Positions 29,501 to 46,384 of a stretch of 64,000 nt of DNA are shown in pieces. The notes under the pieces were generated by a model. That model saw only the letters and a program-made list of their open reading frames with translations, ran no database searches and had not been told where the DNA came from. Source of the DNA: Escherichia phage UE-S5b; sequence record PP301341.1; one strand, 5' to 3'. How positions within the stretch are numbered: position 1 is the first letter of the stretch; each line of letters begins with the position of its first letter. The position numbers and the translations under genes are program-made.

Positions 29501-32500
29501 GGAAACAGTTTTCCCTGTCTATAACAATGACAAGACACCGAACCAGTTCCTGAAATCATTTACCCTGCCGGAAGAACCTAAGTCTCGCACCATTGGTTCT
29601 GAATCCCCTTTGACTGATATTAAGCAAGCACTGTCTTCTACTGCACGCTTTGAAGCATTCACTCAAAAAGAAAATAACGCTCTCACAAGTGATGTGATTA
29701 AGCGTTATCAGGACTTAATGGGCTTTGGTGAAACTCTGAAGACTACTCTGTCTGATCGTCTGGCTAAGTTTCTTGCTAATAAGAACGTTGGTAAACGCTT
29801 TGCAGAAGGCACAGAGGCTAACCGTTGGGTAGGTGGTAAGTTACTTAATATCGTAGAGAAAGACGGAGACACCTTTAAGTTCAATGACCAGTTGTTAGAG
29901 ACTGCTGTACTTGCTGGTCTGCAATGGCGACTGACTGCTACACAGAATGCTGCTGTTAAAGACATGAAAGATGTAGCTGCTATTACTGGAGTAGAAGCAT
30001 CCTTGTTACCTGAAGGTATCCTGGCTGAATTTGAGAATGCTCAGACTCTGGTTGAAGCTACTAACTCACTGGCTCAAAAGATTGAATCTTACTGGGGATT
30101 GAATCGTAATCCTAATGCACCACTGGGTTATACCAAAGGTATTCCAATGGCAATGGCTACAGAGATTCTGTCTTCTCTCATTGAGATGGGTGAAGTTAAA
30201 GAGTCTATGCTTGATGTGTCTGAGATTGACCCAGACTCTAATAAGACCGTCGGTCTGTATACCATTGAGAAGCTGGATGATAACGATGCCATTAACAAGT
30301 TCCCTACTGCTATCGAGGAAGCTGTTCTCGTAGAACCAGAAGAGAAAATGTACTTTGGTGATGATATTCCTTCCGTGGCTCAAACTCAGTTACGTAACCC
30401 TGCTGTTAAGAATACCCCAGAGCAGAAAGCTGCTCTTAAAGCAGAACAGGCTACCGAGTTCCGTGTACACATGCCGATGGTTAACTTCTATGAAGCATTA
30501 GGTCGTGACAACATTCTGGAACTGATGGGTGCTGGTACTCTTAATCCTGAACTGCTGAACGTGAACACTGCTAAGTCACTGGAGGGTAAAAACCTGTCAG
30601 TGTCTATGGCATATGATTCCCTGTTCGGTGTAATCAACCAGTTACAGGAACAGGAGAATGGTCTGGATACGCCTATTCACTATGGTTACAACATGACCCG
30701 TGTAGGTCGTATGCAGATGTTAGGTAAGAACAACCCACAGTCCAGCAAGCTGGTTCGTGAAGCAATTCTGCCAACCTTCTCTACTATCGACTTAAGTAAT
30801 GAAAACAGTCAGACGTTCTCTGATTTCCAGTTAGGTCTGTCTCAGGCATTAGGTATCAAGGTTCATAATATGTCCCGTGAAGCTATGTCTGAAAAACTGA
30901 CCAAAGCTCTGGAAGGTAATTTGAAACCTGCTGTTGATATGATGGTTGAGTTTGATAAGTCCGGGCACTTACCAGCCGATGCAGTAGATATTCTTAAGAC
31001 ATCTCTGGGTGGTGATAAATCATTCGTAGCTCTTATGGCTCTTATGGAGTATGCCCGTTACCTGAACAGTGATGACCGTGCCAACTTTAATACCCCACTG
31101 TACGTTGAAGCCGATGGTGTAACCAACGGACCAATCAACGCAATGGTATTAATGACTGGTGGTAAGTTCACTTCAGACTGGATTAAGAATACTGCTAAAG
31201 GTGGTCTGTTCTTCGGTAAAGCTGGTAAGACTATGAATGAACATCGTTCACAGGATGACAGTGTTGACCTGTATGAAGCATCTACCAATGGTCTGCAACA
31301 AGCACTTAATGAGTTACGTACTACTTACCGTAACAACGTTCCGGTTATGAACCAAATGAATCATCTTCAGAAGTTAATGGACCTGTTTATTAAAGACTTT
31401 AACCTGAATGAAGACGGTACTCTGGACCTGAAACGTGGTATCGCTAAAAACCCACTGACCATTACCATCTATGGTTCAGGTGCTCGTGGTATTGCTGGCA
31501 AGATGGTTAGTGCAATTACTGACACCATCTATGAACGATTCAGTGATGTTCTGCAAGCTCGTGCTGCTGACCCTAGTATTTCCCCAGCTATGGCAATGTT
31601 TGGTAAGGAGGCTGCGTCTGAGGCTGATGCTCAGGCTATGCTGGATACTTTCCTTACTTCTATGGAAGCACTGACTGGTAATGTTCCAGTTATGCGTAAA
31701 GGTGAATTGTCTATTCAACAGGTAGAAGGTGCTCTGACTGGTAAGTTAGACCCTCAGAAGTTTACCGTATCGGGTAATGCCCTGAAGAACTTACAAGAGA
31801 ACATGCTTCACCTGTTCGTTGAACCAATGCGTACTGGTATCCGGAATACTGTTGGGGAAGGTCTGATGCATTCTACTGAGAACTTGCAGAAGGCTACCCA
31901 GATTCAGTCTTTGGTTCTACAAGACATGTTCCAACAAGCAGTACAGGCTAAGCTGGCAGAAAAAGAAAAAGACCCAACCTGGAAGAAGGGTGATTTCTTA
32001 ACACAGAAAGAACTGAATGAAATTCAGGAATCATTGTCTCCACTGGCTCCAATGATTGAGACTGGTTCACAGACTTTCTATATTGCTGGTAGTGAGAATA
32101 CTGATGTTGCTAACCAGGTACTGGCTACCAACTTAGATGACCGTATGCGTGTGCCAATGAGCATCTATGCTCCTTCTCAGGCAGGCGTTGCAGGTATTCC
32201 ATTTATGACCATTGGCACTGGTGATGGCATGATGATGCAGACCCTTTCTACTATGAAAGGTGCTCCGAAGAATACCCTGAAAATCTTTGATGGTATGAAC
32301 ATTGGTATCAACAACATCACTGATGCAAGTCGTAAAGCTAACGAGGCTGTATACACTTCCTGGCAGGGTAACCCTATCAAGAATGTTTATGAGTCTTTTA
32401 CTAAGTTCATGAAGAACGTAGACTTCAGCAAACTATCTGATGAAACCAAACAGGCTATCGCTAAATCTGCTCTGGAATATGACCAGCGTGAAGGTGCTAC

Positions 32501-35500
32501 CGATGACCTGTTACGTGTTGGTGCTGAACAGATTGAACGTAACCTGCGTAATATTGCTCTGGGTGTAGATATTCGTCACAAAGTAATGAACCAGGTACAG
32601 ACTACTGTTGACCAGATGGCTGCTGTTGGTGCTCCTTATGTGAACAACGGTAAAATCTCTCTGGAAGGTCTGACCGTAGACCAACAAGTAGCTAAGCTAA
32701 ATGAACTGTTCGATGCTGAATTAAACAAACGTCGTGATGCAGTACGTGCTGCTAAAGTAGAACCAGTGAAAGAAGTGCCAGCAATGGAACAGGTTGGTCG
32801 TGTACTGAAGTCTGGTGTACGCCTACTGTCTAATACTGCTATCTCTAAGCTGGCTAAAGAGATGTCTCCGGAACAGCAAGCAGTACTGAAAGAAGTACAG
32901 AAATCCCTTGCTGCTAAAGACTATAAGGTTGTTTACGGTACACCTTCCCAACTGGATGCTTATGCTATTGAGAAGAATATTACTCGCCCAGCACCAGAAG
33001 ATATTGAAGCTGCTGAAGCTGGTAATGCGTATGGTTGGACTAACTTTGAAGATAAGACCATCTACTTAGTTACCCCTTCCTTAGAGACTCTGGTTCATGA
33101 ATTGGTGCATGCTTCTACTTTTGAATCTGTACTGGCTCACTATGAGGGTACTCCTAATGAAGCGGTCCAGAACATTGAAGACCTGATGAACCAGTTCCGT
33201 GCTCTGGATGTTAAGGATGAATCCCCGGCAGTTCGGGAAGCATATGCAGATGCTCTTAATACTATTAACGGTCATTTATCTAATGGCTTTATTGAGCCAG
33301 CAATGGCTAAAGCTGCTGCACTGAATGAGTACATGGCATGGGGTTTAACCAACCGTGAACTGATTAGTAAGCAGAAGAAAACCACTGCACTTAAGACTAT
33401 GGTTCAGGCTGTATATGAAGCAATTAAACGTCTGGTATTCGGGCGTAAGAAAGCACCAGCTAATGCAGATGATATGTTCTCTGGCTTACTGTTTAACTCG
33501 TCCGTAGTTATGCGTGGGCAAGCTCCTACTGCTGCTGTAGCCAAAGATACTACTCTGTTCCATAACAAAACGTATGGTGACAATACTCGTCTGGAAGAGC
33601 TAGGGAAAACCTTCGATAAACTGATTACTGACTACATTGGTTCTGAACCAGTACAGCAAGTAATTCGTAAAGGTAAGTTCTCTGATGCAGTGGTTAATGC
33701 GACTAAAGTAACTCGTGATGTTCAGGCTCATGGCTTCACTATGAATATGCAGGAACAACGTCTCTTTACTAACATTGTTGCTGCTCTGGCTACTGAGGCT
33801 GCTATTAATCCTGCTGCTCTGGCTCGTGCGCAGGAATACTACACACATGTTACTAAGAACCTGACCGTTGAGTCATTCATGNCTGACCCAGATAGTACTA
33901 ACCCTGCTGACCGTTACTATGCACAGCAGAAGTTCGATACCATCATGGGTGCTAACAACATTGAGTTTGATTCACAAGGTCGTTCCTCCTTACTGCCTAC
34001 CTTTATTGGTCTGGCGATGGTAAGTGAAGAGGTACGTAAAGTGCTGGCTGATATTCCAGTTATGAAAGTAGACAAGAAATCTGGCAATACCGCTGATGCA
34101 ATGCTGACTAACATCGGTACTGCTGCAATGGCTAGTCTGAATGCTCGTGTAGCAGGAGATACTAAAGCTACCAACGTACAGGAAGGTATGGATGCACTGG
34201 CTCAGACAATCATGCAGACCAGTCTTAATGCACAATCCTTCTATGATTCCGTTGCTACTCCTACGGGTAATGCTATTGATCGTGCTAACCAGTATCTGGT
34301 GGACTCTATTGATGTACTGTCTACCCGTGCTTTAGAAGGTGCTCGTGAAGTTGCAGCTAATACCAAGAACCCGTTGGTTAAAGGTGCTGCCCATGCTGCA
34401 CAATTAATAGCTGCTATTGCTACAGAGAAGAATGGTGCAATCGTAGCCGAAGGTGTTATGGCTGCAATGAACCAGGGTAAGGTATGGCAACCTTTCCATG
34501 ACCTGGTTAATGACTTAACTGGTCGTACTAAGAGCAATGCTTCTGTATATGATTTGATTAAAGCAGTGCGTGCACAGGTACAGGCTGACCGTCAACAGTT
34601 CCGTGAACATCTGCCCACCACTATTGCATCTAAGTTCAGCCGTAAGCTTACTAATGATGAGTGGAAAGCAATGCATACCGGTATGGGTAAAACCGACTTA
34701 GCTGTTCTGCGTGACACTATGTCTCTGGGTGAAATTCGTGACTTGCTGACTGACCAAAAGATTGTTGACCGTGAAGTGAATAAGCTGGAAGCAGATTTGC
34801 AGAAACAAGCAGGACGTAACTGGCCTTTGATTAGCCGTAAATCTAAGCAACTGGCTCAGTACATGATTAATGGCACAGTTGGTAATAACTTGCTGCGTAA
34901 TGCTACTGCAATCTCTCGTATGCTGGGTGAACGACAGGCTGCACGTTCTACTGTAGACGTAGCTCAACTGGATAAACTGATTACTCTGTATGCACTGGAA
35001 GCAATGAGTAAGACTGACCGTGAGATGTTATCTTCACTGGCTCAATCAGAGATTGAAGGCATGGACTTCGCTACTTCTTATCTGGTTGGTCAGCGTAAAG
35101 ATGAAATGGCTAAAGCCAAATCTGATACTCGTGCAACTCTGAACCAGTACAAAGGGTATATTCCTGGTGAGACTAAACAGGGTGTTAACTTGATTGTTGC
35201 TGAAGATAGTCAGTTTGCTGATTTGATTGAGAAGTCCTATGTACGTCTGGGTACTTATCAGGGTAGCTCTGCTAATCGTGGTCCAGCACGTAGCTACTAC
35301 TTTGCACCGGTACAGGCACAGGCTCCATTCTCGCAAGGTATCTTACAGAACGTTCGCAATACTGCTGGTGGTGTAGACCTTGGTACAGGCTTTACGATGG
35401 GTACAATGGTAGCTGGTCGTATCACTGACAAGCCTTCTGTAGACCGTATCACTAAAGCACTGGCTCGCGGTGAACGTGGTAATGAACCACTGCTGCCTGT

Positions 35501-36899
35501 ATATGATGATAAAGGCAATGTGGTTGCTTATGAGCAATCTATTGACCCTAACATGCTGAAGCACATTGAGGGTGAGAACCATCTCGCTCGTGCAATCGGT
35601 GTATGGCGTGGTCGTCAGGTAGAGGAAGCTAAGGCTCAGCGTTTCAACGATATGCTGATTGAGAACCTGCATAGCATGTATAAAAACGACATTAAAATGT
35701 CTGCCTCTAACAAGTCACAGTACGTTAACCTTCTTGGTTCTAAACTGGACCCAGTAACTGCTGATGCCCTTAAGCTGATGAACAGTGAAACTCGTCAGAA
35801 AGCAGAAAGTCTGTTTGGTCCTGGTGAGTTGTGGGTACGTCGTGACATGCTGAATGATGCACTGGGCTATCGTGCAGCTTCCGTAGGTGATGCCTGGTCT
35901 GGCAATTCTCGTTGGTCACCAGAAACACTGGATACCTTCAAGAAAGCTATGTTGGGTGTATTCGGCAACCGTGCTTATAAGTATGTAATGGGTGGTGAGA
36001 ACCTGGTTCAAAACTTAGTTAAAGAAGCCAAAACTCTGATTGTAGTTAAGTCAGTAGTTGTTCCTGCTGTTAACTTCCTGGCTAACCTTTACCAGATGGT
36101 TGGTCGTGGTGTACCTGTTAAGAACATTGCTAAGAGCATTCCACAGAAGACTGCTGAGATTAACCAGTACCTGAAATCTCGTCTGCGTCAGGTAGATGCA
36201 GAAGCAGANTTACGTGCAGCTACTAACCCGAACCAGATTCGTAAGCTTAAGGCTGAAATTCAGTCCATCACTGATAGTCATAAGCGTATGAGTATCTGGC
36301 CTCTGTTAGAAGCTGGTGAGTTTTCTTCAATTGCAGATGCTGGTATTGGACGAGATGACATCCTGATTACTGAAGGTAAACTTCACGAATACATGGATAA
36401 ACTGGCTGATAAGTTACCTAAGTCTGTACGTAATGCTGGACGTTATGCCCTTATCACCAAGGATACTGCTTTATTCCAGGGTATCCAGAAGACGGTTGAG
36501 TACTCTGACTTTATTGCTAAAGCAATCATCTATGATGATTTGACTCAGCGTAAAGGTAAGACTCGTGAAGAAGCACTTGGACGTGTAACGGAAGAGTTCA
36601 TTAACTATGACCGTCTGCCTGGTCGCTTCCGTGGGTATATGGAAAGTGTTGGTCTTATGTGGTTCTATAACTTTAAGATTCGTTCTGCAAAAATTGCAGT
36701 ATCCATGATTCGTAACAACCCGGTACACGCAGCTATGGCTATGTTGGCTCCAACTCCTACCATGTTTGGTAATGTTGGTTTACCTATTCAGGACAACATC
36801 TTCAGTATTGCTGCACAAGGCAATCTCGGTTACTCCTGGGGCTTCGGTCAGGGACTTCGTGCCCATAACCTTAACCCTTGGCTCAATCTAGCTAACTAA
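26529..36899 (+). CDS. giant virion-encapsidated RNA polymerase (N4 vRNAP-like)
   Basis: Single 3456-aa ORF; central region has a T7-class motif B with exact spacing R-x3-K-x7-YG (RGIAKNPLTITIYGSG, ~nt 31430) and a downstream motif-C-like KIFDGMNIG; lies at the end of the structural module as in N4-like phages. Confidence 0.85.
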   Translation: MNRKHAMSTFDRLAGFADSITNAKQVDVSTATSQKQAAQGQSPSQLTPENAYNLQTGRVGNLGIGAFEPGSLQADFTQASPLEILNKYGNEQGLQILNSRANAADAVRQDLSKQRTNAEAFGDTLSGVGLGVANTLGGIAALGTGLVNDNAGASIASGMDWLNEGVHNLQSDALNATRKVVQNQNQISAQKNQKLYEEDIKNGESSLVASLSRIGRDAFDSVANTLDNGMAATDGLSEGVGSLFTGGPLIRGVSALGKVMVGGDKAVKGITLAAELGSRPAQVALSAGRVAAPAIAIGGMEAGGAYQQTASEIMKMSHQELASKSPVYQQHIADGLSPDEARRQTASETGIIAAGLTAPVAAATGPLVSKFELNPLKVGSLAGAGSNMLRETVEEGIQSGTSQFAQNKAIQGNVDAKRDLLKGVGEQAGLGALYGFGSAGVAQAPGTTVKAVGASAGPALRTTLAGASLVGSALAKAASPITNILVQRGEEVAKRNEQASPVSDATVNAAAQEATAQAEQAQATVQEAVDAMDISPEEKAAATQYAADLTQAMKFDPVELEQANPAIREAVSGSTNRVEAIQKMADLVNTAEDPNVQMEAAIQMYDNIMSMDSFINRDPGALANLEQGSPAANIVDQFSGLMANVQNTPKVLRAFRAIHSMIQEQAEAGKLKATEEANQAQANNIAMAADMSPEVLDADSVNMVLKHASEGKITLGNRQRAALQSAAALLQGAREFDAKAEELGLRPQDIVSKQIKTDESRSNEGQYSALQHAKRIRSAYNSGNFDLASAYLDDFMKFAQHMQNKVGALNEHLISGNADKNKSVHYQALTPSREWVRSRTGLGVNPYDTKSVKFAQQVGLEAKTVADIANALATAYPELNVSHVKVTPLDSRLDKPAAQVVKEFRQGGLDATQSQQTNEPVNQVDETPAPAQETTTTVQPKAKPVVENKTVPVKEASSKAEEVSTTKSETVDATLTNEDTTQKVAETKTEMETVFPVYNNDKTPNQFLKSFTLPEEPKSRTIGSESPLTDIKQALSSTARFEAFTQKENNALTSDVIKRYQDLMGFGETLKTTLSDRLAKFLANKNVGKRFAEGTEANRWVGGKLLNIVEKDGDTFKFNDQLLETAVLAGLQWRLTATQNAAVKDMKDVAAITGVEASLLPEGILAEFENAQTLVEATNSLAQKIESYWGLNRNPNAPLGYTKGIPMAMATEILSSLIEMGEVKESMLDVSEIDPDSNKTVGLYTIEKLDDNDAINKFPTAIEEAVLVEPEEKMYFGDDIPSVAQTQLRNPAVKNTPEQKAALKAEQATEFRVHMPMVNFYEALGRDNILELMGAGTLNPELLNVNTAKSLEGKNLSVSMAYDSLFGVINQLQEQENGLDTPIHYGYNMTRVGRMQMLGKNNPQSSKLVREAILPTFSTIDLSNENSQTFSDFQLGLSQALGIKVHNMSREAMSEKLTKALEGNLKPAVDMMVEFDKSGHLPADAVDILKTSLGGDKSFVALMALMEYARYLNSDDRANFNTPLYVEADGVTNGPINAMVLMTGGKFTSDWIKNTAKGGLFFGKAGKTMNEHRSQDDSVDLYEASTNGLQQALNELRTTYRNNVPVMNQMNHLQKLMDLFIKDFNLNEDGTLDLKRGIAKNPLTITIYGSGARGIAGKMVSAITDTIYERFSDVLQARAADPSISPAMAMFGKEAASEADAQAMLDTFLTSMEALTGNVPVMRKGELSIQQVEGALTGKLDPQKFTVSGNALKNLQENMLHLFVEPMRTGIRNTVGEGLMHSTENLQKATQIQSLVLQDMFQQAVQAKLAEKEKDPTWKKGDFLTQKELNEIQESLSPLAPMIETGSQTFYIAGSENTDVANQVLATNLDDRMRVPMSIYAPSQAGVAGIPFMTIGTGDGMMMQTLSTMKGAPKNTLKIFDGMNIGINNITDASRKANEAVYTSWQGNPIKNVYESFTKFMKNVDFSKLSDETKQAIAKSALEYDQREGATDDLLRVGAEQIERNLRNIALGVDIRHKVMNQVQTTVDQMAAVGAPYVNNGKISLEGLTVDQQVAKLNELFDAELNKRRDAVRAAKVEPVKEVPAMEQVGRVLKSGVRLLSNTAISKLAKEMSPEQQAVLKEVQKSLAAKDYKVVYGTPSQLDAYAIEKNITRPAPEDIEAAEAGNAYGWTNFEDKTIYLVTPSLETLVHELVHASTFESVLAHYEGTPNEAVQNIEDLMNQFRALDVKDESPAVREAYADALNTINGHLSNGFIEPAMAKAAALNEYMAWGLTNRELISKQKKTTALKTMVQAVYEAIKRLVFGRKKAPANADDMFSGLLFNSSVVMRGQAPTAAVAKDTTLFHNKTYGDNTRLEELGKTFDKLITDYIGSEPVQQVIRKGKFSDAVVNATKVTRDVQAHGFTMNMQEQRLFTNIVAALATEAAINPAALARAQEYYTHVTKNLTVESFMXDPDSTNPADRYYAQQKFDTIMGANNIEFDSQGRSSLLPTFIGLAMVSEEVRKVLADIPVMKVDKKSGNTADAMLTNIGTAAMASLNARVAGDTKATNVQEGMDALAQTIMQTSLNAQSFYDSVATPTGNAIDRANQYLVDSIDVLSTRALEGAREVAANTKNPLVKGAAHAAQLIAAIATEKNGAIVAEGVMAAMNQGKVWQPFHDLVNDLTGRTKSNASVYDLIKAVRAQVQADRQQFREHLPTTIASKFSRKLTNDEWKAMHTGMGKTDLAVLRDTMSLGEIRDLLTDQKIVDREVNKLEADLQKQAGRNWPLISRKSKQLAQYMINGTVGNNLLRNATAISRMLGERQAARSTVDVAQLDKLITLYALEAMSKTDREMLSSLAQSEIEGMDFATSYLVGQRKDEMAKAKSDTRATLNQYKGYIPGETKQGVNLIVAEDSQFADLIEKSYVRLGTYQGSSANRGPARSYYFAPVQAQAPFSQGILQNVRNTAGGVDLGTGFTMGTMVAGRITDKPSVDRITKALARGERGNEPLLPVYDDKGNVVAYEQSIDPNMLKHIEGENHLARAIGVWRGRQVEEAKAQRFNDMLIENLHSMYKNDIKMSASNKSQYVNLLGSKLDPVTADALKLMNSETRQKAESLFGPGELWVRRDMLNDALGYRAASVGDAWSGNSRWSPETLDTFKKAMLGVFGNRAYKYVMGGENLVQNLVKEAKTLIVVKSVVVPAVNFLANLYQMVGRGVPVKNIAKSIPQKTAEINQYLKSRLRQVDAEAXLRAATNPNQIRKLKAEIQSITDSHKRMSIWPLLEAGEFSSIADAGIGRDDILITEGKLHEYMDKLADKLPKSVRNAGRYALITKDTALFQGIQKTVEYSDFIAKAIIYDDLTQRKGKTREEALGRVTEEFINYDRLPGRFRGYMESVGLMWFYNFKIRSAKIAVSMIRNNPVHAAMAMLAPTPTMFGNVGLPIQDNIFSIAAQGNLGYSWGFGQGLRAHNLNPWLNLAN

Positions 36900-36905
36900 A
36901 TGAAA

Positions 36906-36930
36906 AAGCCCCTCATTAGAGGGGCTTTAA
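36906..36930. terminator. bidirectional rho-independent terminator
   Basis: AAAAGCCCCTC-atta-GAGGGGCTTTAATTTTT between convergent vRNAP (+) and 36937..37437 (-). Confidence 0.6.
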
Positions 36931-36936
36931 TTTTTA

Positions 36937-37437
36937 CTAAACTAACACCCAGTCTTCAGCTAATATATCTGATTGGGATGGGACCCAAGGCATAAACTGG
37001 TCATCAACAGTTTTGATTCCTAACCATGGACGAGGTTTCAATTCATCAGCAAGTCCTGGACGCTCTAAGCTACTGCTATTCCATTCTTGAGCAGCAACGT
37101 ACTCAATGTACATTCCTTTACCATTCCAGCCTTTACGGGCTAGTTTGAAGCCGGATTTGAGAAGCTCTACTGCATGACCAAAGGTGCAACCTTTTTCTAC
37201 GTCATGGTACGCAGTTTCAAATGCAGATTTAGGTGACCAGCTAATATAGCCACGGAACTGAGGATGGTTAGACTTAGAGTCTGGGTACTCTACTAAGTAA
37301 CCTTCTTCTAATGGGTCTTCATTAGCAGGTACATCCCAGCCACGAAGTTTGCAGTATGTTTCTTTGTTCATTCGGAAACCATTTACACACTTGGTTCCGA
37401 TATAATTGGTAAAATGGACTTTAATTTCTTCTGACAT
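36937..37437 (-). CDS. DUF2829-like protein, candidate Tad2-type anti-defence signal sponge, with an unknown N-terminal domain
   Basis: About 166 aa from ATG 37437 (GAGGT RBS); C-terminal half AVELLKSGFKLARKGWNGKGMYIEYV...PWVPSQSDILAEDWVLV matches the K-G-W-N-G-K-G ... LAEDW pattern I recall for DUF2829. Confidence 0.5.
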   Translation of the reverse strand: MSEEIKVHFTNYIGTKCVNGFRMNKETYCKLRGWDVPANEDPLEEGYLVEYPDSKSNHPQFRGYISWSPKSAFETAYHDVEKGCTFGHAVELLKSGFKLARKGWNGKGMYIEYVAAQEWNSSSLERPGLADELKPRPWLGIKTVDDQFMPWVPSQSDILAEDWVLV

Positions 37438-37450
37438 AACTACCTCAAAT

Positions 37451-37480
37451 GAGAAAGCCCTCACTAGGAGGGCTTGTTTT
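37451..37480 (-). terminator. hairpin between minus-strand genes (putative terminator / attenuator)
   Basis: AGCCCTC-acta-GAGGGCT; on the minus strand it is followed by TTTCTCATTT. Confidence 0.35.
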
Positions 37481-37555
37481 GTTTTGGCTTCATGAGCCTT
37501 ACCACATGTCGGGTAGTTCAGTACCTTTCGGTAAAAACTACCTTACACTTTTGAA

Positions 37556-37936
37556 TCAGATTGTACAACCACCACCATCACAGGTGTTGTTTTCTGCAAA
37601 GGAAGCCAGAGCTTTAGCAGTCTCTTCTTTCTCATGCAGTGCCTGACGTAGCAGGTAACCTTCTAATTCCCAAATCTTATTGAATGCATTTTCATATGCA
37701 TACTGACGGCCTTTTTGCTCATCATAGATAGCTGGGTCAACACAGGCAGATACACCTTCAACTTTGAAGCCATTTTCCAAGATGATAATGCAATAGGTTA
37801 TNAGACCCAGGTTAGCCAAATCATCTGCCGGGAGTGCAGATGGATCAACAAATGCAGACTTCACTGCATCAGCTCCATTAAAATAGTAGACGCTCTTAAT
37901 CTTAGCTTCGATTGCTTCTTTACTTACTGTTGCCAT
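37556..37936 (-). CDS. conserved phage protein, N4 gp49 / Sf6 gp66-family-like
   Basis: About 126 aa from MATVSKE; segment ...ENGFKVEGVSACVDPAIYDEQKGRQYAYENAFNKIWELEGY... resembles this family as recalled, and the gene sits next to the vRNAP terminus. Confidence 0.5.
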   Translation of the reverse strand: MATVSKEAIEAKIKSVYYFNGADAVKSAFVDPSALPADDLANLGXITYCIIILENGFKVEGVSACVDPAIYDEQKGRQYAYENAFNKIWELEGYLLRQALHEKEETAKALASFAENNTCDGGGCTI

Positions 37937-38105
37937 TATTAGCCTCATAGAGTGGTTTGAGTTTGTACTTAAACATGACTGCGTTGTTATAGGCTACGCT
38001 ACCTGCAAACACCAAAGACTTGCGTCCTCGATTATCCGTTACCTCATAGGCATACGGGGTTGAGATTAGGTCAATCATATTGATTATCCAATTATTAATA
38101 CTCAA
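37920..38105 (-). CDS. hypothetical small protein
   Basis: 61-aa ORF continuing the minus-strand operon. Confidence 0.3.
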   Translation of the reverse strand: MSINNWIINMIDLISTPYAYEVTDNRGRKSLVFAGSVAYNNAVMFKYKLKPLYEANNGNSK

Positions 38106-38386
38106 ATAAAAAAGTCCCCCAGAGTGACGGCTCCAGGGGACTTAGTACTATTTACCCATAGCTGGGAGGCTTTTGGTTCTTACCACGAAGACAGTCCACG
38201 CTGACNAGNCTTGGGATTGATAGTCCCGTTCCTGTGGTAATTACTCAGGCTAGGATTTAAGGAGTTCCTATTCTCCAGCGAAATTCCCGTCGANGGGAAT
38301 AACAATACAATAGCAGNCACTGGACTGTCTTACCAGTGTTGTCTTTAGAGTGCNATGCAATCAGGACTATGTTACTGCTGAATGGG

Positions 38387-38460
38387 TGTCCACTACTGGA
38401 TTTGAACCAGTGACTTTCCGATTATTAGTCGGTTGCTTTCCCCGTCTAAGCTAAGTGGAC
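38387..38460 (-). tRNA. tRNA (anticodon loop CUAAUAA; anticodon reads AAU, unusual, assignment uncertain)
   Basis: Reverse complement folds as a cloverleaf: perfect 7-bp acceptor stem GTCCACT/AGTGGAC, D-stem GCTT/AAGC, T-arm ACTGG-TTCAAAT-CCAGT; 74 nt. Confidence 0.6.
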
Positions 38461-38466
38461 TTATTA

Positions 38467-38542
38467 TGGTTACCCAGGCAGGATTCGAACCTGCGTCCTA
38501 GTTGGTTTACTAGTGGGGCTTTACCACTAAGCCTACTGGGTA
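38467..38542 (-). tRNA. tRNA with encoded CCA (anticodon unresolved; anticodon arm has a 6- or 8-nt loop, possible indel)
   Basis: Perfect 7-bp acceptor stem TACCCAG/CTGGGTA, D-arm GGCT-TAGTGGTAA-AGCC, T-arm GCAGG-TTCGAAT-CCTGC, 3' ACCA. Confidence 0.6.
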
Positions 38543-38842
38543 TTAATAGGGGAGTCATGCCAGGCTTTAACTGGCTCCTTCTTCGCAATCCTTACATACC
38601 CCTACATAATTATTGCGTTAAGCTTTTTTGTTTAAGTTTAAGTGAAGGCGTTCTTGCTGACTCATAATAGAGTGGGCGTTTGACGAATGACTAGTTCGTT
38701 ACTACCCGTTTGCCATAAGTACCTGGCGACTTTGGTTTGAGGTGGGAGTCCGAGTCCTGTACAGCCTTACCGTTCACACATTGGCAGCGTATCTAGAGTT
38801 GCACTTCCGGCAACTGGATTTAACTGTTACACCTCAAATAGG

Positions 38843-38954
38843 CAGTGGGGGATGGAATCGAACCATCAGTATTAAGTCTTATTCGTGCACCAAGCACGCT
38901 AGTAGATTACTCTACCGGAGGGAATCGAACCCTATCTACTTCACCAGACCCACC
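38843..38954 (-). ncRNA. long tRNA-like element (~112 nt) containing two T-arm-like motifs
   Basis: T-arm GATGG-TTCGATT-CCATC with a 3' acceptor strand CCCCACT; the only complementary 5' strand (GGTGGGT, 6 of 7 pairs) lies ~105 nt upstream; a second TTCGATT motif sits inside. Confidence 0.3.
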
Positions 38955-39039
38955 ATAATTCTTCCAATTTAGAGTAGCATTGTCACGGTGGGTGCTTTAA
39001 ATGCCGGGAAACATTTAAATATACAATGCTACTTTGAAT

Positions 39040-39163
39040 TGGTTATCAGTGAAGGATTCGAACCTCCGGTTGGAGTCTATAGCTTACCGCAGCAGCCCTC
39101 CAATCTAGCGGTGTCACACTTAGTCCAAACTTGAACATGTCAAGCCATCTCGTGCAACTGATA
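39040..39163 (-). ncRNA. long tRNA-like element (~121 nt) with perfect acceptor stem and encoded CCA
   Basis: T-arm GGAGG-TTCGAAT-CCTTC + ACTGATA-A-CCA; the perfectly complementary 5' strand TATCAGT is 114 nt upstream; internal 6-bp stem TTGGAG/CTCCAA. Confidence 0.35.
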
Positions 39164-39165
39164 AT

Positions 39166-39231
39166 TGGTTCCGGCGTCTGGACTCGAACCAGAACACTCA
39201 TGCCGTGCACGACACTAGTACCTACACCGGA
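39166..39231 (-). ncRNA. short tRNA-like element (~63 nt + CCA)
   Basis: Acceptor stem TCCGGTG/CGCCGGA (one G-U), T-arm TCTGG-TTCGAGT-CCAGA, encoded CCA, but only ~31 nt between acceptor and T-arm, too few for standard D and anticodon arms. Confidence 0.35.
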
Positions 39232-39298
39232 ATTAATTGCCAGGGATTCCACCTGGCTCCATCTGTTTTTATAGTCACTCAGATATCGTCTGGACTGT

Positions 39299-39376
39299 AG
39301 GCATGGGTGGGAATCGAACCCACAAACCATTCAGCACTGTAGCCTCACGCTCTACCTATTTGAGCTATCACATACC
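39299..39376 (-). tRNA. tRNA-like gene with canonical D-arm and T-arm but unresolved anticodon arm
   Basis: D-arm GCTC-AAATAGGTA-GAGC, T-arm GTGGG-TTCGATT-CCCAC, acceptor GGTATGT/CCATGCC (6 of 7 pairs); no clean 5-bp anticodon stem found. Confidence 0.4.
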
Positions 39377-39639
39377 ATTGATTAACTCCCCGTTTCTAAT
39401 ACATGGACGGGGACACTCCACGGTCGTTTGATAATCAGGACGACTCACTCCTGACTGACGCTTGGCTTATTAGGCTGCCATCAGAACAACATCATCGTTT
39501 GCATTTATGTTATTGGTTCGTTTCTAAAAAACCGCATAATCGCTTACGAAAACTATCAAAGAGTACACTAGCTCTGGGCCACGCTTGTGGANATCGGCCT
39601 ACCTTCCACAGCTAATCAACTAATGCACTCACTGATAGC

Positions 39640-39880
39640 CCATAATAGGGGGGAGGGGACGAATCCTCCCTTTATACCCTATATTGCATGTAAGATCTAA
39701 CAGTTCGATGTTGTAGGTAGCTAGGCTATCCGACATTTAACCCAGCCCATATAGGGGCTTATGTGATTAGAATGCTCAACATTGAGCGGTTAGTTTGATA
39801 AGGGATCTGAAGCCTTATCCTAAAGATACTAACCTTTGGGATATAGCCTAAGATTCAGAAATGGCCCCTATAGGAAGAGG
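39640..39880. repeat. three copies of a GC-flanked TATAGG motif (AGCCCATA(A)TAGGGG / GGCCCCTATAGGAAGAGG) in a non-coding region
   Basis: Seen at ~39641-39660, ~39742-39757 and ~39863-39878, spaced ~100-120 bp, all in the same orientation; CCCTATAGGG core is palindromic. Confidence 0.4.
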
Positions 39881-40050
39881 CCATTGATTAACCCGAATGT
39901 TGCTTTACATTTTCTGTGATAACCGATTCTTAAAATAGTCTGTCTGACGGATGGGGGGCCACCCCTAGCGTCAGTGCCATACGGCAAAGATTAAGTTAAG
40001 AAAGGTTATGATAGGAGTTCCTATCTCAAAGGATTCTAACAGAACCCTTC

Positions 40051-40227
40051 ACGATATTAACTACTCTTTTTTAATGCCTTTACTTCACCATCTTTATACC
40101 AAGCATATGGTATTAAGATTTTGCAACCTTCTGAATCAATGTGGAATGCTTTGTTCCCTTCAACAGGTTCTCCACCCACGAAAGAACTAACCTTTCCATT
40201 GAGCCAGTGAATAGTAAATTTGTTCAT
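40051..40227 (-). CDS. hypothetical small protein (58 aa)
   Basis: Hand-translated minus-strand ORF MNKFTIHWLNGKVSSFVGGEPVEGNKAFHIDSEGCKILIPYAWYKDGEVKALKKSS; below the 60-aa track cutoff. Confidence 0.25.
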
Positions 40228-40458
40228 GTTAACCNNGTTTGAACCAATCCCCTTCNGAGAGTATTAAAGGGGACTGGTTCGGTTGTTGTTATTCTGGCGG
40301 CTTGTCACCACCGTGTTTACCACTGCATTTCCACAGGATAATGACAGTGATGATAAAAGCTATGTATGGAGCCGACACGTCTATAATCCTGACCAGTAGT
40401 AGCATCAGGACTATAAACACTACCACACCTAGCAGCAGCTTCTGAGCCACCTACCAGA

Positions 40459-40902
40459 TTAACTACGTTTAAGGCCAGCGAACAGTGAAGGTTTCGCAGC
40501 AGGTTTCTCTGCTGGTTCTTCAGCCTTAACCTCTTCCTGCACAACTTCTTCTTGTGCTTCTGGTTCAGTTACTGCTTCTTCTTCAGGTTCCGGCGTAGAA
40601 CTCTCGTTCGGACCACCAGTAGAGGTCTGGATTTCTTCTCCCTTTACCNCTTCAACCACTTCTTCTGGTTCCGGTTCTACCGGACGGTGTTTAGCTTCCT
40701 GAGGGTTCTTACGAGAACGACGTGTCTTCTTCTCTACCAAGGGCGGAGTATCATCGTTATGACTTACCTCTTCGTTAATACCAACGGAGGCTGTACCATC
40801 TGCATTGATGACAATACTAATGTCTCCAGCAAGATTGATTTGATCATCGACATAAGCCTGTACAGCAGCTTCTACTTCGGACTGGTTCAAAATGATTTGC
40901 AT
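40459..40902 (-). CDS. acidic Pro/Glu-rich protein (unknown function)
   Basis: 147-aa ORF, folded N-terminal ~50 aa then a low-complexity PEPEEE-rich tail; abuts the resolvase gene. Confidence 0.45.
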   Translation of the reverse strand: MQIILNQSEVEAAVQAYVDDQINLAGDISIVINADGTASVGINEEVSHNDDTPPLVEKKTRRSRKNPQEAKHRPVEPEPEEVVEXVKGEEIQTSTGGPNESSTPEPEEEAVTEPEAQEEVVQEEVKAEEPAEKPAAKPSLFAGLKRS

Positions 40903-40903
40903 A

Positions 40904-41458
40904 TTACGCCTTTATTAAATTAAGAAGGTTTTGGAAAGCTGGGAGATTTACACCAGCGTGGATTGCACCGATTGCATCTGCTAAGTGCTCATTCTTATTC
41001 AGAAGTTTACCTTTTTTATCTGTGAGCCAGTTGGCTTCTGGATAGATAGCATGGGCAGCACGAATCATCGTGTCTTTGGATGCAGTTTTATCACCGACCA
41101 GTGCAAGTTTATTTTCAATTGGGGATACTTCAAAGATTGGACAACCCAATGCACGAAATGCACCAATTAATCCTACGCATACGCCATAGGATTTCATACC
41201 GTTAGCAGACTGAGAGCCTACTGGTACTTCTACGAATACTGCTTTAGCAGACCGTAACCATTCTTCACAACCAAGAAACAAATCGTGAGCGGCTTGTATA
41301 TCTTTGGAGTTGGTTCGAACTTGTTTGTTGTGGTCAACTTCAGTTTGAACCAGTTTAAGTTCGACCTGCTCGAAGACGCCGGACTCAATGTCCAGCATCC
41401 CACGAGCTAAACCCCAATTGCGGAGACTAATGTCTGCACCAACAATTGGGATTTTCAT
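40904..41458 (-). CDS. RuvC-like Holliday junction resolvase
   Basis: 184 aa; MKIPIVGADISL (first-strand Asp), VFVEVPVGS (Glu), C-terminal HLADAIGAIHAG (Asp) fit the RuvC-fold catalytic layout. Confidence 0.55.
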   Translation of the reverse strand: MKIPIVGADISLRNWGLARGMLDIESGVFEQVELKLVQTEVDHNKQVRTNSKDIQAAHDLFLGCEEWLRSAKAVFVEVPVGSQSANGMKSYGVCVGLIGAFRALGCPIFEVSPIENKLALVGDKTASKDTMIRAAHAIYPEANWLTDKKGKLLNKNEHLADAIGAIHAGVNLPAFQNLLNLIKA

Positions 41459-43104: not shown

Positions 43105-45258
43105 TTATTTGCCAGCGTAGCGTTTAGCCACGGTGACCATTACGGTTGCATTCAATTCATCATCTGGTAATGGATTAGCCAGTTTCTTATTGAATGTGTG
43201 GACGGCTTGCTGTACTTGAGCAAAGTCCCAACCACTGTCAACCAATGCCAGTGCGTACTTAATCATTTGATTATTACGATTACCGGAGGCAATACGACTA
43301 GCGAACCAACGCTCCAGATTATCCAACGACTGTACTTCCTTCATCTGGTTCTGGAACTGCTCGTTCTTACTAGTACGAGGAATAAAGTCACGCACATCTA
43401 ACAGATTCGCATCAAGATTGTAATGATAGGAACCAGTCTCACAGGACATCCACTTCTTGGCTCGTTGGTTAGCAGACTCATCTGTTTCAAATGGTAGCCA
43501 AGCCATAACGTTATTCATGAACTCTTTGTATTCCTCAGTGTCGAGGTGTAACTCATAGTTCATTGGAATAATCAGACGGAAGCGGTTCTCTTCATCAGTA
43601 TGACGCTTGGTGGTATAGGTCATGAACTTATATTCCTTCATTAGTTCATGGCACGTATGCAGGGGTACTCCACCATCACAGTCAATAACAATCATGTTAA
43701 ATCCTGGGATAACATTTTCTTCAGAACGATGCCCATTCTTCATGTGATGGTTTACCCAGTGCATACCGGGAGCTTGGGTTAATACATGCAACTGGTCGAA
43801 CGGTACACGTTCACCAATGTAGTCATAAGCAAAGCTATCACTATACGCCACAATCATCTCATTGATGTCTGTCTCTTTAAGAGTTTCACCACGGAAGAAC
43901 TCAATACCTTCATTGAAGGTCTTCTTAATGATGATGTGCTGCTTGTAACCCCATGCTGTAGCAAGAGTCATCATCTCATTACGAGCTGCATTACCACTCT
44001 TATAGAATGGTAAAGACTCCACCAAATCAGCATGGGTTACTTCTTTACCTACAGAAGCAATGTACTTAGCCAGCTTCACATAAGCCTTCTCACGATTGAG
44101 GATTGTCTGAAATGCTGCTCCAGATTCTTCTACAAGCAGAATTGCTTGTTTAAGGTGGGTCATCTCAATGAATGAACTTTGGTCAACAAACGCCAGTGCA
44201 CCTGCCAGCTTAAGTGCTTTGAAATAACGGTGAGAAATTTCAGCTTTACGAATATCTTCATGGTCAGCCATAGCTTCTGCTTGCTTCTCACAATCAATTT
44301 TGTAAGCAATCAGAGCAATACCCACGGCATCTTCTACAACCATCTTAAAACCAAACAGGTTTGGGTCAGCCAGACTATGGAAATGGTTAGCCCACTTATC
44401 AAGAGTCTGTACGTTATCTTGTTTAATCAGGTTACGGTAGATTTCTTCCGGGGTTAGTGTTGCATGTGCTCTCTTGTCTAAGTGACCAGTAGCAAACAGA
44501 CAGCGACGTGCATACCCTATATCGAGAAAGCCATAGAACTGGTCTTCAGTCTGACCACCATCCAGCAGCTTACTCGGAGTACCGAACAGCAGCAGGTTAG
44601 TTGGAGTTTTTCCATCCAATTCTTCACCACGAACGCTTTCAGCAGTATTCTTGGTTAGCTTCTGTTTTACTTTTCCCTGGTCATATAACTCCAGGAATAG
44701 GGTTAGTACATCCATGTTAGCCAACAGGTTCGAACCAATTTCATCAATCTGAAGATTGATTGAACCACACCCAGCCATTAACAGCTTATGCCGTAGCTGT
44801 TTAACTGCTGGTGGAGTACCAGAGTCAAACGTAAACGGATATGCCCCGGCACGTTTATACTCTGCTTCAACTTTATCAAACTCTTCCTGCTGGTCAGTAC
44901 CCTGACGAGCAGAACGTTCGTTAGCAATCTTCCATAGACGATCATTTGCAATGACGGGCATGGTGTCTTCCATAAAGCGTTTACGGAAGCCAGACATGAA
45001 CCCGTCTTCAATGATATTTACTGAGTGACCTTTACCGAAACCAGATGTAGCCAACGCTATAGCGTAGATGTTTACCGGCAGGTCACCACGGTCTTTAGTT
45101 ACAATGGTTGCACCCATGCAGGATGCCATTTTAGCCAAGAAGTAGGCTACTTCGACACGGAAGAATCCCCGGTCATTATTCTGGGTTTTATTGCAGAGCA
45201 CATCTACGATTTCTTCAATCGCCTGATGATGCACTACTCCGGTAAGGTCAATACTCAT
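43105..45258 (-). CDS. putative DNA primase (primase-polymerase-like) / replication initiation protein
   Basis: About 717 aa from MSIDLTGVV (ATGA overlap with the upstream gene); MIVIDCDGG resembles an AEP DxD motif; position between nuclease and Sak4/SSB genes. Confidence 0.5.
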   Translation of the reverse strand: MSIDLTGVVHHQAIEEIVDVLCNKTQNNDRGFFRVEVAYFLAKMASCMGATIVTKDRGDLPVNIYAIALATSGFGKGHSVNIIEDGFMSGFRKRFMEDTMPVIANDRLWKIANERSARQGTDQQEEFDKVEAEYKRAGAYPFTFDSGTPPAVKQLRHKLLMAGCGSINLQIDEIGSNLLANMDVLTLFLELYDQGKVKQKLTKNTAESVRGEELDGKTPTNLLLFGTPSKLLDGGQTEDQFYGFLDIGYARRCLFATGHLDKRAHATLTPEEIYRNLIKQDNVQTLDKWANHFHSLADPNLFGFKMVVEDAVGIALIAYKIDCEKQAEAMADHEDIRKAEISHRYFKALKLAGALAFVDQSSFIEMTHLKQAILLVEESGAAFQTILNREKAYVKLAKYIASVGKEVTHADLVESLPFYKSGNAARNEMMTLATAWGYKQHIIIKKTFNEGIEFFRGETLKETDINEMIVAYSDSFAYDYIGERVPFDQLHVLTQAPGMHWVNHHMKNGHRSEENVIPGFNMIVIDCDGGVPLHTCHELMKEYKFMTYTTKRHTDEENRFRLIIPMNYELHLDTEEYKEFMNNVMAWLPFETDESANQRAKKWMSCETGSYHYNLDANLLDVRDFIPRTSKNEQFQNQMKEVQSLDNLERWFASRIASGNRNNQMIKYALALVDSGWDFAQVQQAVHTFNKKLANPLPDDELNATVMVTVAKRYAGK

Positions 45259-46384
45259 GATGGAAAATATCTCTCTCTTTGTTTGCAAATGGATGCGACA
45301 GGGCAGTATAAACAACGCTTAACCTGCCCCTCCACGACCTTGATAGCACCCTTGCCACCTTTTTCAGCCATGAAGATACGAGCAGATGCCATATCGTCAA
45401 AGTTTTTGGTACTTCTGGCTCCAGGCATATCTACCTTAGAAGCATCAGAGAAGTATTTGAACTGTGGCTCTGTTCGCCACAACTCCTCGTCAGTACATTC
45501 AGGAATTTCCTCTTCAGGAGCATCCCAGTACTTTTCGATGAGATGTATCTTCTCTTCTACCCAACGTTCAGTCTTATCGACAGATAACAACGGAATATCC
45601 TTATGCATAATACGATTAGCAGGATAGTTCGGATTGCTATTAGCCATGTGTTTCATGAAGTCAGTGAAGATGTAGTTAATACGGATTACATCCTCGGTAA
45701 TGATGTCGTTGTGAATCCAACGGTACAAGCTACCTTGCATCTTGTGTTCATCATCACGGGAACCAGCAACCCAGGAATAGGTTGAGGTAGACTTAAAGTC
45801 TTGCAATAGACCTTCTGTTACGATGTCGAACTTACCCCCGATAGTCCAACCCTTAACTACCCTGGTTCCACGTTGTTCAATGTAGATTGGGATAAGGTCA
45901 GGGTTAGCATCAAAGTCTGCTTTGGTTGGGTTAATGACTACTGCATCAATTACTCGCTGAGGGTAACCCAACTTCTTCAATGCAGTCTTATGTCCTAGCT
46001 TCCAGGCTTTCTCGATAGAATCATGCAAGCCAGTACCCATTGATGTGGAGACNTAGCATCAAAGTCTGCTTTGGTTGGGTTAATGACTACTGCATCAATT
46101 ACTCGCTGAGGGTAACCCAACTTCTTCAATGCAGTCTTATGTCCTAGCTTCCAGGCTTTCTCGATAGAATCATGCAAGCCAGTACCCATTGATGTGGAGA
46201 CGAAATCCATAACATCAATAGACTGGTCACTAAGGTCTACACGATGTTTCATGACGATTTGCTTAAGTGGCTTAAGCAATGTAGTTACAGACAGATACTT
46301 GGGATTGTCTACATAATCATACTCGTCATGTAATAGCCATACAGCCAGGGCCAGCGAGACATCATGGTTGTTGGTTATCTTCAT
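45255..46384 (-). CDS. PD-(D/E)xK-like nuclease with C-terminal Cys cluster; reading frame split by a 149-bp tandem duplication (probable assembly artefact)
   Basis: Track ORFs 45255..46040 and 45995..46384 repeat the same peptide (GTGLHDSIEKAWKLGHKTALKKLGYPQRVIDAVVINPTKADFDA); removing one repeat copy restores a single ~330-aa ORF ending ...RCLYCPVASICKQRERYFPS. Confidence 0.45.
45905..46201. repeat. exact tandem duplication, 2 x 148 bp separated by a single N
   Basis: 45905-46052 is repeated at 46054-46201 with N at 46053; period 149 bp, not a multiple of 3. Confidence 0.85.

Follow-up and report, generated by a model that had tools for sequence, protein, structure and literature searches.

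Gene content of the locus

The window, by which we mean the whole 64,000-nucleotide stretch analyzed, belongs to Escherichia phage UE-S5b (PP301341.1), a Gamaleyavirus among the G7C/N4-like Schitoviridae coliphages; Escherichia phage UE-M6 is 99.6% identical to it across a 3-kb query. The gene of interest (Table 1), hereafter the Tad2 gene, had been placed by the first-pass annotation at coordinates that prove exact for a minus-strand ORF of 166 aa. It opens with ATG, its product begins MSEEIKV, and a GAGG ribosome-binding site is found 4 nt upstream of the start codon. The gene is free of ambiguous bases, and the protein matches PHROG 872 over its full length (E = 1.3e-65). A 175-aa reading initiated at a GTG from position 37464 was considered and rejected, as it is unsupported by homologs and would cross the hairpin in the upstream spacer.

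Table 1. Features of the UE-S5b locus (positions in the window)
Feature	Position	Strand	Description	Basis
Virion RNA polymerase (vRNAP) gene	26529..36899	plus	3,456 aa; one hotspot boundary; convergent with the Tad2 gene
Bidirectional intrinsic terminator	36905..36928	both	10-bp GC-rich stem, between the convergent vRNAP and Tad2 genes
Tad2 gene (CDS)	36937..37437	minus	166 aa plus stop; N-terminal sponge-associated domain and Tad2-like (PF11195) domain	ORF, translation, Pfam
Tad2-like domain	36940..37188	minus	residues 84–166; motifs GWNGK (W104, N105) and W151-x-P-S154-x-S156-D157
Hypervariable insertion of the Tad2 domain	37027..37107	minus	residues 111–137	column entropy
N-terminal domain	37198..37413	minus	residues ~9–80; small β-barrel and two helices; sponge-associated, unnamed
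Hairpin	37455..37475	minus	8-bp stem, in the 118-nt spacer that separates the Acb4-like gene from the Tad2 gene	terminator-like scan
Acb4-family sponge gene (PF13876)	37556..37948	minus	ortholog of N4 gp48	full-profile match, E = 1.3e-25; 47% identity to N4 gp48
61-aa ORF (phrog_34266)	37920..38105	minus	upstream, same transcription direction	annotated CDS in UE-M6 and Mimir124
RuvC-like protein gene	40904..41458	minus	ortholog of Ab09 gp60 (Bes1)	41% identity to Ab09 gp60
DNA primase gene	43105..45315	minus	other hotspot boundary	UE-M6 annotation and published hotspot definition

Strong hairpins had been proposed on both sides of the gene, and both are real. The stem between the vRNAP and Tad2 genes has folding energies of −18.1 / −18.6 kcal/mol (z = −5.0 on each strand against shuffled sequence) and is followed on both strands by a T-rich run with 5 T in 8 bases. 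The second hairpin is 17 nt upstream of the Tad2-gene start codon, within a spacer that is structured as a whole (fold z = −3.75), and is possibly a leaky terminator or an RNA-stabilizing element. An Rfam scan of 36800..40600 returned two tRNAs only, with no structured RNA family at the hairpins.

The next gene upstream encodes a protein of the PF13876 family, with its true start likely at the ATG at 37936. PF13876 is the Acb4 sponge family; an assignment to Acb2 was ruled out, as the literature gives PF13876 as Acb4, and a PDB sequence search with this neighbor matched neither Acb2 nor Acb4.

The C-terminal half is a Tad2-like domain with a conserved pocket

The first-pass annotation had read the C-terminal half of the protein as DUF2829 (Tad2-like) from two motifs, LARKGWNGKGMYIEYV and PWVPSQSDILAEDWVLV. 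Both are found in the translation, and the domain assignment stands on a Pfam match, on solved relatives, and on the pocket residues. Residues 85–166 align with positions 2–73 of the 73-position PF11195 profile (Tad2-like, formerly DUF2829) at 85.9 bits, far above chance and above the gathering cut-off of 25 (E = 2.8e-24), which is the significant HMM match that the annotation had proposed to look for. In the PDB, the top sequence match is ModTad2 (8V3E/9EIB), with 40 of 83 residues identical (E = 1.7e-20); further relatives are SPO1 Tad2 (32 of 80 identical), HgmTad2/AcrIIA7, and SptTad2. ModTad2, which with TmoTad2 and CcaTad2 represents the subclade that inhibits type II Thoeris (His-ADPR), scores 78 bits and SPO1 Tad2 54 bits, and the 48% identity to ModTad2 does not define specificity.

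A Tad2-like fold and ligand pocket, which the annotation had also named as a check, are likewise found. As is characteristic of the fold, the domain begins with a helix and continues into an antiparallel β-sheet whose loops carry helical insertions. To map the pocket, the SPO1 Tad2 residues reported to hold 3'cADPR, directly or via bound waters, were transferred by alignment: W25, N26, I63, T65, D67, H71, W73, S76, T78, and D79 correspond to W104, N105, I141, T143, D145, M149, W151, S154, S156, and D157 of the UE-S5b protein. Nine of these ten contact residues are kept, eight of them identical and T78 represented by S156; H71 is replaced by M149. The gcADPR residues of HgmTad2 (W21, N22, G23, W87, S90, T92, and D93) fall within the same motifs. 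By every feature that can be assessed in silico, the C-terminal half is a member of the Tad2 family.

ModTad2, also called MoTad2, is a single-domain protein of 88 aa from a Myroides odoratus prophage, whereas the UE-S5b protein adds an 83-aa N-terminal domain and has a different insertion sequence. The founding member, SPO1 Tad2 (Gp34.65; PDB 8SME/8SMF), shares the fold and 40% identity with the UE-S5b Tad2 domain, but it has a short insertion, a second pocket occluded by F44, and no N-terminal domain. In HgmTad2/AcrIIA7 (PDB 8KBI–8KBM), the residues of the cGG/cGAMP pocket lie in an insertion that cannot be aligned with that of the UE-S5b protein.

AcrIIA7 is itself a DUF2829 protein and is among the PDB matches (9kzr, 8kbi), and records built with Pharokka name the ortholog of the UE-S5b protein 'anti-CRISPR protein'. 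An AcrIIA7-type anti-CRISPR function is nevertheless extremely improbable, given that the anti-Cas9 activity of AcrIIA7/HgmTad2 is irreproducible in vitro and in vivo while its sponge activity has been shown structurally. The label itself is a database-transfer tag ('phrog:acr') that is carried by the adjacent Acb4 homolog as well. E. coli is not known to carry a type II CRISPR-Cas system.

Ligand prediction and the hypervariable insertion

Members of the Tad2 family have been shown experimentally to act as sponges for signals of Thoeris I, II, and IV, CBASS, and Pycsar, often of several systems per protein. ModTad2/MoTad2 binds His-ADPR, and a second pocket binds cUMP/cCMP; this protein has the same pocket motif as the UE-S5b domain yet is inactive against type I Thoeris. 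Sequence therefore does not reveal which ligand a Tad2 protein takes up. Reasoning from the nearest relatives mildly favors His-ADPR or 3'cADPR as the ligand of the UE-S5b protein.

In HgmTad2 and MoTad2, the second pocket is formed by an insertion after β2 and takes up cyclic dinucleotides or mononucleotides. The corresponding stretch of the UE-S5b family, residues 111–137, has a column entropy of 2.3–2.8 bits, against 0.5–1.3 bits elsewhere. Similarity to individual relatives is mosaic: identities in the N-terminal domain, the Tad2 core, and the insert are 92%, 85%, and 13%, respectively, for one relative (P0022) and 69%, 83%, and 87% for another (P0020). Phage N4 gp49 also diverges from the UE-S5b protein mainly within this stretch. 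The pattern looks like cassette exchange at a specificity-determining site, and the insertion would mark where closely related phages probably swap ligand specificity.

The gene occupies an anti-signaling hotspot of N4-like phages

According to a June 2026 preprint, N4-like phages have an anti-signaling hotspot bounded by the primase and vRNAP genes, with Tad2, Tad3, Acb4, Sequestin, and the RuvC-like protein Bes1 among its contents. UE-S5b has the same layout, with primase, a Sak4-like ATPase, SSB, the Bes1 ortholog, tRNAs, the Acb4-family gene, and the Tad2 gene. The RuvC-like Bes1, whose name stands for 'broad evasion of signaling 1', acts in immune evasion. A 147-aa ORF in the window was also considered as a Bes2 ortholog and discarded, as the similarity is of low complexity only.

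By sequence comparison, the Tad2 gene is the ortholog of gp49 of phage N4 (EF056009), a 160-aa protein with 75% identity, the same two domains, and the same position beside vRNAP; the Tad2 assignment is right but was already to be expected at a locus that has been described. The N4 counterpart of the Acb4-family gene, gp48, encodes a 123-aa PF13876 protein that is 47% identical to the product of the UE-S5b neighbor. N4 differs in that gp48 and gp49 abut, without a spacer or hairpins, and in carrying another Tad2 insertion cassette. N4 gp48 has been studied as Acb4 N4: N4 regains infectivity on cells with Panoptes when gp48 is knocked down, and expressing gp48 alone triggers Panoptes toxicity. 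N4 genes do not appear in the Panoptes paper (PMC12657218), and gp48 is treated in a companion paper; of the N4 pair, the experimental study covers gp48 only, and we found no published test of gp49-type proteins in the searchable literature.

The composition of this region also admits a role in phage DNA metabolism, or another role outside defense, in which similarity to Tad2 would reflect a shared fold only. Some of the neighboring genes encode SSB, a RuvC-like protein, a Sak4-like ATPase, and primase, marking the end of the replication block, and context predictors of the Phynteny type return 'DNA, RNA and nucleotide metabolism'. We regard such a role as very improbable: conservation extends beyond the fold to the pocket residues, the same interval carries demonstrated anti-signaling genes including the RuvC-like Bes1 itself, and phage Ab09 with the corresponding region deleted generally replicated well, with slightly smaller plaques.

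Proposed function

We predict, with a probability of roughly 0.75, that the gene encodes a two-domain counter-defense sponge of the Tad2 family located in an N4-type anti-signaling hotspot. The gene would be the last of the rightward (N4 early/middle-type) block of the phage and, alongside the Acb4 ortholog next to it and the Bes1 ortholog nearby, would form part of the hotspot. The Tad2 domain would most likely form the homotetramer typical of the family, a dimer of V-shaped dimers, whose conserved inter-protomer pocket would take up host signals made by TIR proteins, either 3'cADPR (gcADPR) or His-ADPR. The additional pocket built by the hypervariable insertion possibly holds a cyclic nucleotide. 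With the signal sequestered, effectors of the Thoeris type, and perhaps of the CBASS or Pycsar type, would never be activated.

The first-pass annotation had further held that annotations of N4-like phages usually lack such a function. This is out of date, as orthologs are already labeled (a DUF2829 protein in RefSeq, 'Thoeris anti-defense 2-like protein' in Shigella phage Moonfish, 'anti-CRISPR' in Pharokka-annotated genomes) and the 2026 preprint lists Tad2 in the hotspot. The Tad2 call chiefly corrects annotation: the gene is entered as hypothetical or anti-CRISPR in many N4-like coliphage genomes, some of them from therapy candidates for which uropathogenic E. coli was the isolation host. 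The gene of these phages is most likely a Thoeris/CBASS-type signal sponge beside an Acb4 sponge, an identity that matters when predicting host range and when predicting how sensitive a phage is to systems, Panoptes for example, that use decoys and fire when sponges are present. Beyond this correction, the N-terminal domain family, which is compact, highly conserved, and very abundant, is the more useful output of the analysis.

The N-terminal domain defines a family fused to sponges

The first-pass annotation had called the N-terminal ~85 aa an unrecognized domain. This holds to the extent that sequence searches of Pfam, NCBIfam, and the PDB matched nothing in residues ~9–80, including when a 38-sequence profile was used, but the domain is not an orphan, as it belongs to a large sponge-associated family that is also represented in RyR Tad (see below). 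The N-terminal ~75 aa are predicted with confidence to fold as a small β-barrel. The family motif is YIGTK..A.PM...Y..RGW..P..E...EGYLVEY.D...N....GYISWSPK..FE.AY, and about 10 polar and several aromatic residues vary little or not at all among the aligned members. Conservation of the N-domain exceeds that of the Tad2 core. A short linker of conserved length leads from the N-domain to helix α1 of Tad2.

When 1.84 billion representative proteins were searched with the profile, with clustering at 50% identity, N-domain clusters numbered 2,937 at E ≤ 1e-3 and, at the stricter E ≤ 1e-10, 1,392. The domain is N-terminal, internal, or C-terminal in proteins of 76–354 aa. Among the best 146 of ~2,900 representatives, the fusion partners recognized by Pfam are Sequestin (PF21825; 43 proteins), Tad2 (39), Acb4 (14), and the Acb2/Tad1 hairpin (5); a second tally gives 46 Sequestin and 40 Tad2 fusions. 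With local HMMs, 92 of these 146 contain at least one of Tad2, Sequestin, and Acb4; regions without an assignment include a cluster of 7 segments, one of them from a protein (P0245) positive for Acb2/Tad1. Eleven of the best 146 are essentially stand-alone N-domain proteins. The N-domain family is large and, by the best 146 representatives, found almost only fused to sponges. Three-part proteins combine the N-domain with Sequestin and Acb4 (in either order), with Sequestin and Tad2, or with Acb2/Tad1 and Sequestin. We found neither the two-domain architecture nor the link between the N-domain family as a whole and sponges described in the searchable literature.

Single polypeptides made of recurring anti-signaling modules are likewise known from other anti-defense loci, in Acb4-Tad2 of phage Pm86 and Acb4-Sequestin of Ab09 (gp59). 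In those two fusions both halves are proven sponges, whereas the UE-S5b N-domain is a candidate module only; sponge fusions of the Acb4-Tad2 type with an N-terminal partner are functional. Ab09 gp59 was examined as a possible carrier of the N-domain and rejected, being too short at 147 aa. A Sequestin-type C-terminus gave no match in the PDB.

Relationship to RyR Tad and possible roles of the N-domain

The N-domain aligns with residues 1–69 of RyR Tad (Pectobacterium phage CB1 gp68) with an hhalign probability of 97% (E = 9.8e-11), and a Foldseek search of BFVD with the N-domain found a RyR-domain protein of Yersinia phage TG1 (E = 1e-4). The CB1 record describes gp68 as similar to the RyR-domain protein of Yersinia phage TG1. 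RyR Tad resembles the UE-S5b protein in having the homologous N-domain, a C-terminal sponge for an ADPR signal, and a gene that lies within the hotspot, likewise in an N4-like phage. Unlike the UE-S5b protein, it has a RyR-repeat-like sponge domain in place of Tad2 and a divergent N-domain, which the authors who annotated Tad3 in N4-like hotspots call a fold of unknown function.

In the crystal, the RyR Tad N-domain forms a β1-swapped dimer and contributes to dimerization, and residues 1–86 alone were inactive in an assay against type I Thoeris only. By homology with RyR Tad, the N-domain of the UE-S5b protein would most likely form a β1-swapped dimer that clamps the protomers. It would then serve as a structural dimerization or avidity scaffold stabilizing the oligomers of the attached sponge, without a ligand or target of its own, a role that we consider quite possible, if just short of an even bet. 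Besides the RyR Tad dimer and its lack of anti-Thoeris I activity in isolation, this role is consistent with the short linker of conserved length to Tad2 helix α1 and with the fact that every fusion partner of the N-domain is an obligate oligomer. Nevertheless, Tad2, Acb4, and Sequestin oligomerize without an N-domain, phages maintain stand-alone N-domain genes, which would be odd for a pure scaffold, and the conservation of surface-type polar residues is unusually high. Moreover, six residues that hardly or never vary in the family (W34, P37, E40, E50, N57, and Y77) are missing from the RyR Tad N-domain, so carrying over either its dimer role or its inactivity to the UE-S5b protein is uncertain.

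The polar and aromatic conservation, denser than a 70-aa scaffold requires, would instead suit a module with an anti-defense activity of its own, either a new family of small-molecule sponges or a protein-binding inhibitor in the style of Tad3–Tad8, which would make the protein a dual inhibitor comparable to the Acb4-Tad2 and Acb4-Sequestin fusions. The fusions are consistent with such a module, since the N-domain is joined to five different sponge families like a bead, in any order, recurs in three-part proteins, and takes N-terminal, middle, and C-terminal positions; the same guilt-by-fusion logic also uncovered Sequestin. Stand-alone genes fit as well, among them one in Erwinia phage phiEaP8 that encodes a 78-aa N-domain protein at the identical position beside vRNAP. 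Arguing against an independent activity, the one relative assayed, RyR Tad residues 1–86, was inactive within the limits of the type I Thoeris assay, and the N-domain is structurally unlike any solved sponge; we found no sequence or structural similarity to Tad1, Tad2, Acb2, Acb4, Sequestin, Lockin, or TadIV-1. We therefore treat an independent module as a tentative reading that falls somewhat below even. It concerns the N-domain only and would leave the Tad2 half free to act as a sponge. The choice between a dimerizing scaffold and an independent anti-defense module is roughly balanced. The broader proposal, that the N-domain is a new and very widespread anti-defense module (a sponge family or a binder of a host immune protein), that phages combine it with Tad2, Sequestin, Acb4, Acb2/Tad1, and RyR Tad domains, and that N4 gp49-type proteins are dual inhibitors, is more doubtful still.

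If the N-domain has a ligand or target of its own, it would add a major family to the counter-defense repertoire of phages; if it is a scaffold, it would show a route by which phages arrive at multivalent sponges. The combination of N-domain and Tad2 is also found in a different genomic setting, as in P22-like phages the N-domain-Tad2 gene sits between the lysis and terminase genes.

Domain Combinations of the N-Domain

The N-domain, which in the window is fused to a Tad2-like domain, also occurs alone and in larger fusions. Erwinia phage phiEaP8 encodes a stand-alone N-domain gene of 78 aa (L009:2504-2740) in the same place as the fusion gene of the window, as the final gene before the vRNAP gene and convergent with it. 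Three-module fusions are found in Pseudomonas phage inbricus (CNR35_00038; L008:2492-3190) and in the representative proteins P0174, P0262, and P0245, with the architectures N-domain+Acb4+Sequestin, N-domain+Sequestin+Acb4, N-domain+Sequestin+Tad2, and N-domain+Acb2/Tad1+Sequestin. The metagenomic protein P0236 (354 aa) carries, in a single ORF, an HNH_3 and AP2 homing-endonuclease-like module between the N-domain and Tad2, which suggests that a sponge gene has been invaded by a mobile endonuclease.

In the set of 146 N-domain representatives (the best 146 among ~2,900 clusters), about 40 proteins, including P0156, P0161, P0167, and P0196, have extensions of at least 40 aa adjoining the N-domain that do not match Tad2, Sequestin, Acb4, or Acb2/Tad1. 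Some of these are frameshifted Tad2 remnants, while others consist of unknown segments that recur and may represent additional uncharacterized sponge domains.

Residues 111-137 of the Tad2 domain form a hypervariable, mosaic insertion cassette. Identity within it is 13–17% among close relatives, compared to >85% in the flanks on either side, and distinct cassette types reappear across differing backbones. The equivalent region builds the second ligand pocket of HgmTad2 and MoTad2.

Gene Content of the Hotspot

The vRNAP-side end of the hotspot is a site of gene gain and loss. The relatives 24-32N and Mimir124 contain one to two additional small genes between the Tad2 gene and vRNAP (L001:3979-4362, L002:3442-3672), among them a 76-aa phrog_9565 gene, whereas in the window a terminator directly follows the Tad2 gene and these genes are absent. 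On the other side of the Tad2 gene, a structured spacer of 118 nt with two hairpins separates it from the Acb4-like gene. N4 lacks such a spacer, its gp48 and gp49 genes being directly adjacent. In the window the spacer may act as a leaky terminator, be a site of processing, or provide promoter context. The Acb4-like protein contains an X at residue 49, arising from an ambiguous base (N) at 37802, one of 63 such positions dispersed over the window, some of them in the vRNAP gene.

Features of the hotspot in the window
Feature	Position	Strand	Basis
Interval between the vRNAP and Tad2 genes, with the terminator	36900..36936		
Insertion cassette	37027..37107		
Structured spacer	37438..37555		
Acb4-like gene	37556..37948	-	
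Sparse stretch	~38100..40450		
tRNA-Ile (anticodon AAT), then tRNA-like gene after 7 nt	38385..38542	-	ARAGORN, Rfam
147-aa ORF	40459..40902	-	
RuvC-like gene	40904..41458	-	

The 147-aa ORF adjoins the RuvC-like gene in the Bes2 position, and the sole feature it has in common with Ab09 gp61 is an acidic low-complexity tail. The product of the RuvC-like gene shares 41% identity with Ab09 gp60 (Bes1), a broad signaling-evasion factor.

Approximately 2.3 kb of the hotspot is mostly non-coding; besides tRNAs, it contains just short ORFs that lack support, along with several N bases. The close relative UE-M6 also has an annotated tRNA-Cys near 39296..39375, which ARAGORN does not report in the window. 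The tRNA-like gene has an aberrant anticodon loop and is called "tRNA-???" with a two-base anticodon by ARAGORN; it is annotated as tRNA-OTHER in UE-M6 and scores 42.8 bits against the Rfam tRNA model.
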